The translations under genes and the position numbers were made by a program. From a bacterium (GTDB lineage: Bacteria; UBP6; UBA1177), in the NCBI GenBank assembly GCA_017405875.1, contig JAFQZM010000020.1, positions 9,422-73,421 of the forward strand: a stretch of 64,000 nt of DNA. Reading direction: 5' to 3'. Below the pieces are notes generated by a model. That model worked only from the letters and a program-made list of their open reading frames with translations, did no database searches and was not told where the DNA came from. Each line of letters starts with the position of its first letter. Position 1 is the stretch's first letter. Of this stretch, positions 5,312 through 6,963 are shown one piece after another.

Positions 5312-5914
5312 ATGCCTATAAGGATTCAAGATGGCAAATTGTTATACCATGTAACTGCTGTTGAAAATTTGGAAAACATTTTCAAACATGGACTTCTTTC
5401 AAGAACAGATGCTATCTCGAAAAAATTATTAAAAGTTAATATTGCTGATCACGAAATCATCGAAAAAAGGAAGGAACTTGGAATCCTGCAATATGTCCCA
5501 TTCCATTTTTATGAAAAAACACCATTTACATGGACTATTTTTAACAACAATCCCGAAAAATCATTTTGCTGCATAACAATCCTCAGAGATTTCGCCAAGC
5601 AGCAAAATTTTAAAATTTGTACCGCCCATCCTTTGTCACAAAATCCCATTGCAGAAGTGTTGGATTATGAAGATGGCTTCCGTAAAATTAATTGGGAAAA
5701 TGCCGAAAAAAGAGATTATGATGATTCAGTAAGCAAAAATGCGTGTATGGCTGAATGTCTCGCTGTTTCGCCTGTAAAACCGGAAGATTTTTTTACAATT
5801 TATATAGCAGACAACAACACAAAGGATTATGTTGAATTTTTGGCGACAAATATATTGGGAAATTATAAATTCTATATCGATGTAAATCCGTCTATAAGCA
5901 AAGCAAGAATATGA
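5312..5914 (+). CDS. darT: DarT, DUF4433 DNA ADP-ribosyltransferase toxin
   Basis: N-terminal [33 protein letters not shown] and [12 protein letters not shown] match DarT signature blocks. An AEcLAV motif carries the putative catalytic Glu. RBS GGAGAA precedes the ATG, and the stop overlaps the darG start (ATGA). Confidence 0.85.
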   Translation: [200 protein letters not shown]

Positions 5915-6963
5915 TAAGATCTGAAACCGGCAACATATTAGATTCTTCCGCGCAGTGTCTTGTGAACACTGTAAACTGCGAAGGATTCATGGGAAAGGGA
6001 ATCGCATATCAATTCAAAGAAAGGTTCCCTGAAAACAACAAAGAATATGTGAAAGCTTGCAAAAACGGGAATCTAACTATCGGAAAGATCTTATTTTTTG
6101 AAGAAGATGGCAAAATCATTGCGAATTTCCCGACTAAAAACAAATGGCGTGAAAAATCACAATATTCTTACATTGACTCTGGCTTGGAAGCCTTGGAAAA
6201 AGGAATAACTGAAAGAAACATCCTATCGCTGGCGATTCCACCGTTAGGATGCGGCAATGGTGGATTGGACTGGAACATCGTAAAACAAAAAATCCTCGAC
6301 AGATTTAAAAATTCAAATGTCGATATAATAATCTATGAACCATCCAAGGTTTTTACCCCCAAACCGATTGTCCACAAAATGTCGGCATCTCATTTGATCT
6401 TGATGATGTTAAAAATCGGTCTTCACCCTATTGGCAAACTTCGATTGCAGAAAGCGGCCTATTTCTTGAACATATTCAGCGGCGACGATTACTTTAAGTT
6501 TGAAGAATACAAATTCGGTCCTTATGATCACGACATTGAGATTTTATCTCAACACATCAAAGATTTTCAAGAAATCTACGGCGTTGACACAGCCGCTGCT
6601 CAGAAAATTCTCTACAACAACATTGTGAGTGACAGCGTAAAAGAAACCGTTGAAAAGTTTACCCCCGCGATACACAAGGCAACTAATTTCGTAAACTCCA
6701 TCGAATCCAATCACGAGCTCGAGATAGCGGCAACAATAGTCTACATCATTAAAGACAATCCTCAATTTAAAGAAGATGAAATCGTTAATTACTTCCTCAA
6801 TGACTGGCCAAAGGAAGATCCGACGAAATTTTCCAAAGAAGAAATAAAGATCTCATTAACCAGACTGATAAAATCGAATATAATTATTCAAAATTTGTTC
6901 GGATACTTTGTTTCTGACGAGATACAAAACAAACCTGATTTATTGCCGACATATCAATTGTAG
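5911..6963 (+). CDS. darG: DarG antitoxin: N-terminal macrodomain plus a C-terminal Panacea/DUF4065-like domain
   Basis: Residues 1-150 closely resemble the DarG macrodomain ([36 protein letters not shown] ... [13 protein letters not shown]). The C-terminal half carries [14 protein letters not shown]...[14 protein letters not shown], which resembles DUF4065. It is translationally coupled to darT. Confidence 0.8.
   Translation: [350 protein letters not shown]

Follow-up and report, generated by a model that had tools for sequence, protein, structure and literature searches.

DarTG toxin–antitoxin (TA) systems fall into two classes according to the antitoxin: in the thymidine-specific DarTG2 class it is a macrodomain protein, in DarTG1 a NADAR protein (PMC11543638). 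In the Thermus DarT toxin, residues H13, R51, H119 and E160 are described as essential, respectively, for binding nicotinamide adenine dinucleotide (NAD), for polarising NAD and abstracting a proton, for locking the base, and for catalysis (PMC9967889). The C-terminal domain of the Mycobacterium tuberculosis DarG antitoxin has been crystallised in complex with DarT (7yk3_B), and experiments summarised in PMC11543638 demonstrate phage defence by DarTG. Here we describe a darTG gene pair at positions 5312–6963 of a 64,000-nucleotide stretch (hereafter, the window) of contig JAFQZM010000020.1, from a bacterium of the UBP6 lineage (UBA1177; assembly GCA_017405875.1). The pair is very probably a DarTG2-type toxin–antitoxin and phage-defence cassette. 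We observe conserved catalytic residues, the operon structure, the accessory status of the pair and the fold of the toxin-binding domain, and we take the mechanism by homology from the Thermus, M. tuberculosis and Escherichia coli systems. The two genes, and the two domains of the antitoxin, are:

5312..5914, plus strand: darT, predicted DarT-family single-stranded DNA (ssDNA) ADP-ribosyltransferase toxin, 200 amino acids (Pfam PF14487, PADLOC DarT).
5911..6963, plus strand: darG, whole gene, 350 amino acids (PADLOC and NCBIfam DarG models).
5911..6348, plus strand: darG N-terminal macrodomain, predicted ADP-ribosyl-DNA glycohydrolase (residues 1–146; Pfam Macro, 1.2e-16).
6349..6963, plus strand: darG C-terminal helical/winged-helix domain, predicted to bind DarT (residues 147–350), and stop codon.

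An earlier sequence-only reading of this DNA had given exactly these coordinates for the two open reading frames (ORFs), and every peptide block that it quoted is found in the translations. The genes overlap by 4 nucleotides, with the sequence ATGA at 5911–5914; the translational coupling and antisense orientation that had been claimed for the pair are both borne out by the sequence. The ATGA-type, toxin-first arrangement recurs in several of the comparison loci, which we refer to by L numbers (L001, L002, L085, L091 and L094). Guanine–cytosine (GC) content is about 36% for the two genes and 0.35–0.38 over 5001–7000, in keeping with the earlier figure of about 35%, against roughly 0.45–0.48 for the window background; the centre of the polysaccharide locus in which the pair lies (10–24 kb) is just as GC-poor. 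Around darTG, 25 minus-strand ORFs (3 to the left and 22 to the right) span 782–35739, most of them matching polysaccharide-synthesis families, and darTG is the sole plus-strand coding unit among them. The strand setting therefore stands as first described, with 25 flanking ORFs in place of the approximately 30 genes then counted. Similarly, the pair had been called nested inside a polysaccharide locus; it is indeed imported cargo there, but its site is better put as the 3′ variable end of the locus, between wecB and ugd.

DarT matches Pfam PF14487 (DUF4433) with 73.8 bits (gathering cutoff 22.5; expectation value (E) 2e-20) over profile positions 1–181 of 201, and the PADLOC DarT model with 102 bits (8e-30), as the DUF4433 identity first proposed for 5312..5914 would have it. 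In the PDB, a DarT family profile that we built from 63 relatives found its strongest match in 7omu, a DarT–macrodomain fusion from Thermosipho (64 bits, E 1e-16), and its next in Thermus DarT 7omv (5e-10); E. coli C7 DarT1 (8baq) matched only across the N-terminal NAD-binding motif, the first 45 or so residues (E 1.2e-5). In the profile-to-PDB alignment, H13, R53, H106 and E148 superpose on Thermus H13, R51, H119 and E160, and all four are invariant in the 63 relatives. The expected catalytic glutamate is thus present as E148.

The antitoxin is recognised over its whole length. The PADLOC DarG model is covered at positions 1–327 of 329 (315 bits, 1e-94), and the NCBIfam DarG equivalog is passed with 270.8 bits against a cutoff of 250 (2e-80). 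Against the PDB, the TARG1-like macrodomain matches M. tuberculosis DarG 5m3i at 7e-41 and Thermus 5m31 at 8e-37, so that the DarG macrodomain assigned earlier to 5911..6963 holds in both the Pfam and the structural comparison. Residues K76 and W79, in the sequence FPTKNKW, align with the Thermus catalytic K80 and with W83 (FPTKKHW), and both are invariant in 63 relatives; W83, the counterpart of W79, is the thymidine-stacking residue. Because the antitoxin is of the macrodomain type, and not the NADAR/YbiA-like protein that marks DarTG1, we assign the pair to the DarTG2 class.

The sequence-only reading went further and described the C-terminal half of DarG as Panacea-like, which would have made the protein an unusual union of a macrodomain with a Panacea (DUF4065) antitoxin domain. 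An AlphaFold2 model of residues 147–350, computed from a 63-sequence alignment, had a mean predicted local distance difference test (pLDDT) score of 94.5 and a predicted template modelling score (pTM) of 0.91. Its best Foldseek match in the PDB was the M. tuberculosis DarG domain 7yk3_B, with a probability of 1.00 and template modelling (TM) scores of 0.59/0.64 over 197 columns, the whole length of the domain; its other PDB matches were generic winged-helix domains. Given this match, the full-length coverage of the PADLOC DarG model and the passing of the NCBIfam cutoff, the C-terminal half is predicted to be nothing other than the DarT-binding domain that every DarG possesses. The likeness lies in the fold. 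At the level of sequence the domain barely matches its M. tuberculosis counterpart (E 0.48, 15% identity), and a sequence search of the PDB with the DarG profile did not recover that counterpart at E ≤ 1; the fold search alone did.

What, then, remains of the Panacea resemblance? Pfam DUF4065 (PF13274) gave no match at E ≤ 10 to the C-terminal half, nor to any of the 63 DarG relatives. As a Panacea reference we took PanA of the Burkholderia prophage phi52237, experimentally validated and annotated as DUF4065 in the phage record; all 47 of the relatives collected with it carry PF13274. Aligned by hhalign, the DarG and Panacea profiles agree with a probability of 58.7% (E 9.4e-5) over 37 columns only (LQKxAYF...FExxxFGP), or some 37 of 204 residues; these columns are the very motif that the sequence-only reading had picked out. 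A confident model of a Panacea protein (pLDDT 95.6) has 7yk3_B as its top PDB match; this match is weak (probability 0.77, TM 0.46/0.40), and the next stands at 0.06. A fold search of viral models (BFVD) with the DarG C-terminal domain returned generic winged-helix matches only and no named Panacea protein. According to a 2026 paper, DUF4065 proteins are distantly homologous to the C-terminal domain of DarG (PMC13621843). We read the resemblance as probably genuine but remote, and as a property of DarG in general rather than of this gene: the local motif stands, whereas the unusual architecture does not, and we reject a new combination of macrodomain and Panacea in favour of the DarT-binding domain typical of DarG. 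Our comparison does lend weak, independent support to a common ancestry for the domain with which DarG binds its toxin and the promiscuous antitoxin domain of Panacea.

To place the pair in its genomic setting, we compared its DNA with that of its relatives, which come from rumen and gut metagenomes. The features at its borders are:

5142..7006, unstranded: shared cassette, comprising the upstream region, darT, darG and 43 nucleotides, 99.5% identical to L001.
5091..5146, minus strand: relic of a wecB 3′ region, 18 codons (NFKELLEDKAAYDKMAHA), forming a 56-nucleotide direct repeat with 7203–7258 in the intact wecB.
5196..5223, plus strand: candidate darTG promoter, TTGTTT-N16-TATAAT, followed by a GGAG ribosome-binding site 8 nucleotides before the darT ATG (read from the sequence).
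7121..8263, minus strand: intact wecB-like uridine diphosphate (UDP)-N-acetylglucosamine (GlcNAc) 2-epimerase, convergent with darG (Pfam Epimerase_2, 1.2e-117).

L001 is a contig of another metagenome (Logan SRR14597530), and past the cassette it runs into a different flippase, a pyruvyl transferase and glycosyltransferases. Matches of lower identity were found in L004 (93%, matching 4834–6964, flanked by a hexapeptide transferase), in L002 and L003 (77%, matching 5061–6962, flanked by an HD-CE protein, an FRG protein and sugar genes) and in L089, a metagenome-assembled genome (MAG) from NCBI (76%, matching 5193–6964). In L089 the pair is truly nested and antisense, with DegT, nucleoside triphosphate (NTP)-transferase, epimerase and dehydrogenase genes on one side and acyltransferase, formyltransferase and ATP-grasp genes on the other. 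The left edge of the shared DNA falls between 5061 and 5193, and the right edge is the darG stop codon, beyond which the match to L001 extends for 43 nucleotides. As similarity to L089 begins at 5193, the stretch with the candidate promoter travels with darTG. The wecB relic is 86% identical in DNA to the intact gene, with 16 of 18 residues identical, and also occurs in L002, L003 and L004; it is the scar of an earlier recombination at the left border of the cassette.

In two loci from related species, L006 and L007, ugd and everything to its left are shared with the window (2–3432, 81–89% DNA identity). Upstream of ugd they carry other co-directional genes, and neither DarTG nor the AAA_14 ATPase that adjoins the cassette in the window. 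The best matches of ugd itself are rumen Spirochaetales MAGs (84–91%), which would place the host, only approximately, among uncultured spirochaetes of the rumen; this gene is, however, widely transferred. The 99.5% identical copy beside different sugar genes in L001, the absence from L006 and L007 and the wecB relic at the border together establish that darTG is accessory, imported DNA, present in several polysaccharide loci and defence islands; the description of the pair as cargo of such a locus is upheld. We found no recombinase and no inverted repeats at the cassette, and no transfer RNA gene serving as an integration site within the window. A scan of 3000–12000 with Rfam returned nothing, and plasmid and phage collections yielded only distant DarT relatives, of at most 39% identity. 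We tallied twelve distinct darTG contexts, in a sample that was not random:

Polysaccharide loci, 5 contexts: the window, L001, L002/L003, L089 and L094–L097.
Likely polysaccharide locus, with one flanking gene seen (a hexapeptide transferase), 1 context: L004.
Defence islands, 4 contexts: L085–L088, L100, L098 and L101.
TA or miscellaneous regions, 2 contexts: L091–L093 and L099.

The more distant members of the clade, at 55–70% identity, lie in bacteriophage exclusion (BREX) loci, beside an MmeI-type restriction–modification (RM) gene with an SNF2/PLD protein, beside DndB, or among TA genes. In the BREX-embedded relatives (L085, L087, L088 and L100), darTG sits between the PglX methylase and the SNF2 helicase/PglZ. 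The L085 pair occupies 7402–9062, and its DarT and DarG are 74.5% and 69.7% identical to the window proteins; the L100 pair, at 5402–7065, has a DarG of 65% identity, with NB-ARC and Schlafen-like genes alongside. L094, a widespread human-gut contig, carries a YafQ-type TA pair (798–1231) and DarTG (6361–8059), both antisense within one polysaccharide-type run of LicD, pyruvyl transferase, thiamine pyrophosphate (TPP) enzyme and epimerase genes. At 512–1773 of L099, an NCBI MAG, an intact DarG follows a 68-residue DarT fragment among PIN and HipA-like TA genes, and may be an orphaned antitoxin.

Between the window and L002, the ratio of nonsynonymous to synonymous substitution rates (dN/dS) is about 0.19 for DarT and about 0.09 for DarG. 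Both genes are therefore under purifying selection. Their histories do not run in parallel, however. For the window DarT, the nearest copy is the BREX-embedded one (74.5%), with the L002 toxin at only 56.6% identity, whereas the window DarG is closest to the DarG of L002 (85.4%) and 69.7% identical to the BREX-embedded one. The synonymous rate (dS) relative to L002 is 1.84 for darT and 0.99 for darG. This incongruence, together with a darT dS roughly twice that of darG, suggests recombination between the toxin and antitoxin genes. Such an exchange is plausible because the macrodomain would reverse the modification whichever DarT had made it, and cross-protection by non-cognate antitoxins has been reported (PMC11543638).

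The surroundings of darTG in the window include two further candidate defence genes and the bulk of the polysaccharide locus:

3574..4869, minus strand: AAA_14/DUF4143 ATPase (Pfam AAA_14 2e-22, DUF4143 4e-17), directly left of the cassette.
9548..11353, minus strand: homologue of the ApeA family of HEPN antiviral defence proteins, 601 amino acids, low GC, 2.6 kb right of darTG.
14347–15795, minus strand: Wzx flippase.
22287–23510, minus strand: Wzy polymerase.
Minus strand, polysaccharide locus: two UDP-sugar dehydrogenases and two UDP-GlcNAc 2-epimerases.
Minus strand, polysaccharide locus: six glycosyltransferases, a pyruvyl transferase and several acyl/acetyl transferases.
Minus strand, polysaccharide locus: a DegT aminotransferase, a CapD-like dehydratase, an FnlA/B/C-like trio and an initiating sugar transferase.

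The ApeA homologue has no Pfam match. Against the PDB it matches Ec2ApeA 9hxi over its full length (E 1.7e-48; query 2–585 against chain 2–563), and the RNxxxH motif of HEPN is kept, with RIYRNRNMIIHNG aligning with RIYRTRNLIVHTG. It reads in the same direction as the sugar genes, with a wecC-like gene on one side and a hexapeptide/F420-type gene on the other. The AAA_14/DUF4143 ATPase matches PDC-S01, a candidate defence family of PADLOC, with 300.9 bits. Just upstream of its start codon, at 4900–4998, lie three tandem 33-nucleotide repeats (GCATTYCTTCAAAACTTTT...), present also in L004, which could be a regulatory or operator array. The wecB and wecC genes (7001–9500) form a block of higher GC, about 46–52%, flanked by low GC on both sides: DarTG on one, and ApeA with the serotype-specific genes (about 34–37% GC; 9501–24000) on the other. 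With this higher-GC block set between low-GC ones, the 3′ end of the polysaccharide locus has the look of a patchwork of parts acquired independently. Farther away in the window, we noted a ZU5 domain (E 8e-9) in the minus-strand ORF 46693–48090 and a GILT thiol-reductase domain (E 8e-25) in the plus-strand ORF 49330–50904, both domains better known from eukaryotes.

If the pair works as its characterised homologues do (PMC5179494, PMC9967889, PMC11543638), DarT would use NAD+ to ADP-ribosylate a base in ssDNA, most likely thymidine, and so block replication. The macrodomain of DarG, with K76 as its catalytic residue, would strip ADP-ribose from the DNA, and the C-terminal domain would bind and sequester DarT directly. 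An infecting phage might upset this balance, whereupon free DarT would modify phage and host DNA alike and the infection would be aborted. The cassette itself, a candidate promoter and two genes with no recombinase, would spread by recombination with, or next to, exchangeable sugar genes. The defence context comprises the ApeA homologue and the PDC-S01 ATPase in the window, and relatives of the pair in BREX, RM and Dnd islands.

Several observations weigh against a DarTG2-type defence cassette. DarT misses the NCBIfam NF048013 toxin_DarT equivalog, with 54 bits against a cutoff of 150, and so lies outside NCBI's narrow model. Moreover, two residues of the Thermus nicotinamide pocket are replaced: Tyr71, which stacks on the nicotinamide, by His65, and Met78, which stabilises the oxocarbenium, by Phe72. 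With these substitutions, the activity or target base of the toxin could differ. The two replacements are invariant in the 63 relatives, down to 34% identity, a set that includes a Vibrio protein named DarT by NCBI; they mark a sub-clade rather than damage, and do not exclude the protein from PF14487. One could argue from this invariance, from the missed equivalog cutoff, and from a nearest solved relative that is the Thermosipho fusion 7omu and not the Thermus or M. tuberculosis DarT, that we are dealing with a DarT variant of changed chemistry or target (another base, another motif or a non-DNA substrate) rather than a plain DarT2. We regard this as improbable: its partner is a bona fide DarG that keeps both the thymidine-stacking Trp and the catalytic Lys, the equivalents of R51, H119 and E160 are present, and a histidine, we infer, can also stack on nicotinamide. 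A consensus scan called neither a terminator nor a convincing promoter for darTG, and passed over the candidate at 5196–5223. Finally, darT carries a 2-nucleotide deletion in L004, a close relative, and is truncated in L099, a more distant one; toxin decay thus does occur in the DarT family. An apparent darG frameshift in L004 was rejected as decay, the sequence there being a scaffold gap filled with N. That the genes of the window are likewise decaying remnants with no current function is nonetheless barely credible, and is contradicted by the data: neither ORF is truncated, every key residue is retained, dN/dS stays well under 1, and an intact copy of 99.5% identity exists elsewhere.

The remaining alternatives accept an active DarTG and dispute its purpose. 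The pair could serve as an addiction or stabilisation module, with post-segregational killing by DarT retaining the exchangeable polysaccharide region and phage defence absent or incidental. The cassette or its close relatives are found in at least five polysaccharide contexts (the window, L001, L002, L089 and L094–L097), with L004 a possible sixth; L094 has a YafQ-type TA pair nested in a similar way; and the cassette itself carries no genes for mobility. Yet distant members of the clade reside inside dedicated BREX, RM and Dnd defence loci, an ApeA homologue neighbours darTG in the window, and phage defence by DarTG has been demonstrated elsewhere, as summarised in PMC11543638. We judge stabilisation as the main role to be unlikely, though worth keeping in mind, and note that the addiction and phage-defence roles are compatible and not mutually exclusive. 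In M. tuberculosis, DarTG has been proposed as a physiological regulator of growth and replication rather than an immune system; PMC12170906 describes its control of replication and gene expression, and the window proteins belong to the same family. A core regulator would not show the pattern seen here, however, in which the cassette is accessory, strain-variable, low in GC, missing at the corresponding site of related species, and represented by relatives in defence islands. We therefore consider a regulatory role highly improbable, and a DarTG2-type defence cassette the best account of the pair.

Beyond routine annotation, the locus adds slightly, through the placement of the pair in a polysaccharide locus with an ApeA homologue and through the His/Phe clade of its toxin. 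Among uncultured bacteria of the gut and rumen, the same small antisense cassette turns up repeatedly in capsule or O-antigen loci that differ from one another, in the window with an ApeA homologue close by; this hints that loci which determine receptors are exchanged along with immune genes. The DarT described here falls into a large clade whose nicotinamide-pocket motif departs from that of the biochemically characterised enzymes. We speculate, while holding the whole to be doubtful, that DarTG and further small defence genes of rumen and gut bacteria, ApeA and PDC-S01-type ATPases among them, are systematically embedded in the exchangeable, serotype-determining part of surface-polysaccharide loci, that darTG, placed antisense, could have its expression tied to read-through transcription of the polysaccharide operon, and that DarT enzymes of the His/Phe clade could prefer a target other than that of the characterised DarT2 enzymes. 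Were this so, a single recombination event would swap the phage receptor, in the form of the capsule or O-antigen type, and intracellular immunity together.

Set beside the systems already described, the pair most closely follows the DarTG2 plan. With the systems of Thermus aquaticus, M. tuberculosis and E. coli it shares a toxin-first, overlapping two-gene operon; a PF14487 toxin with the His, Arg, His and Glu residues; and a two-domain DarG with the catalytic Lys, the Trp and a C-terminal domain of the 7yk3_B fold. It differs from them in its divergent DarT (54 against 150 bits, with His for Tyr71 and Phe for Met78), in a C-terminal domain barely detectable by sequence, and in its location in a polysaccharide locus. 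The Thermosipho africanus DarT–macrodomain fusion (7omu) resembles it at the catalytic site, where MA[E]CL of the window protein aligns with the mutated MAACL of the solved structure. That enzyme, however, is a single polypeptide that lacks a separate C-terminal DarT-binding domain, whereas two genes are present here, and it keeps Tyr and Met at the positions of His65 and Phe72. From DarTG1, the guanosine-specific pairing of DarT1 with NADAR, the window pair is set apart by its macrodomain antitoxin and by a toxin that shares the superfamily and the N-terminal NAD-binding motif of E. coli C7 DarT1 but does not align with DarT1 over the rest of its length.

With the Panacea/DUF4065 antitoxins (PanA, SocA), DarG shares a helix/β-hairpin core motif, LQKxAYF...FExxxFGP, and both Panacea and DarG C-terminal domains neutralise toxins by direct binding (PMC8832971). 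The fold match between them is nevertheless weak (TM 0.40–0.46), and the domain in DarG exceeds that of Panacea in size, having an additional winged-helix-like part at its C-terminus. Among the relatives, the BREX-embedded pairs (L085, L087, L088 and L100) have the same gene order and overlap, with DarT at 74.5% and DarG at 69.7% identity; unlike the window pair, which is antisense among sugar-synthesis genes, they are co-directional with PglX and the SNF2 helicase/PglZ. Taken together, these similarities and differences make the darTG pair described here a typical, if divergent, member of a well-studied toxin–antitoxin and phage-defence system.

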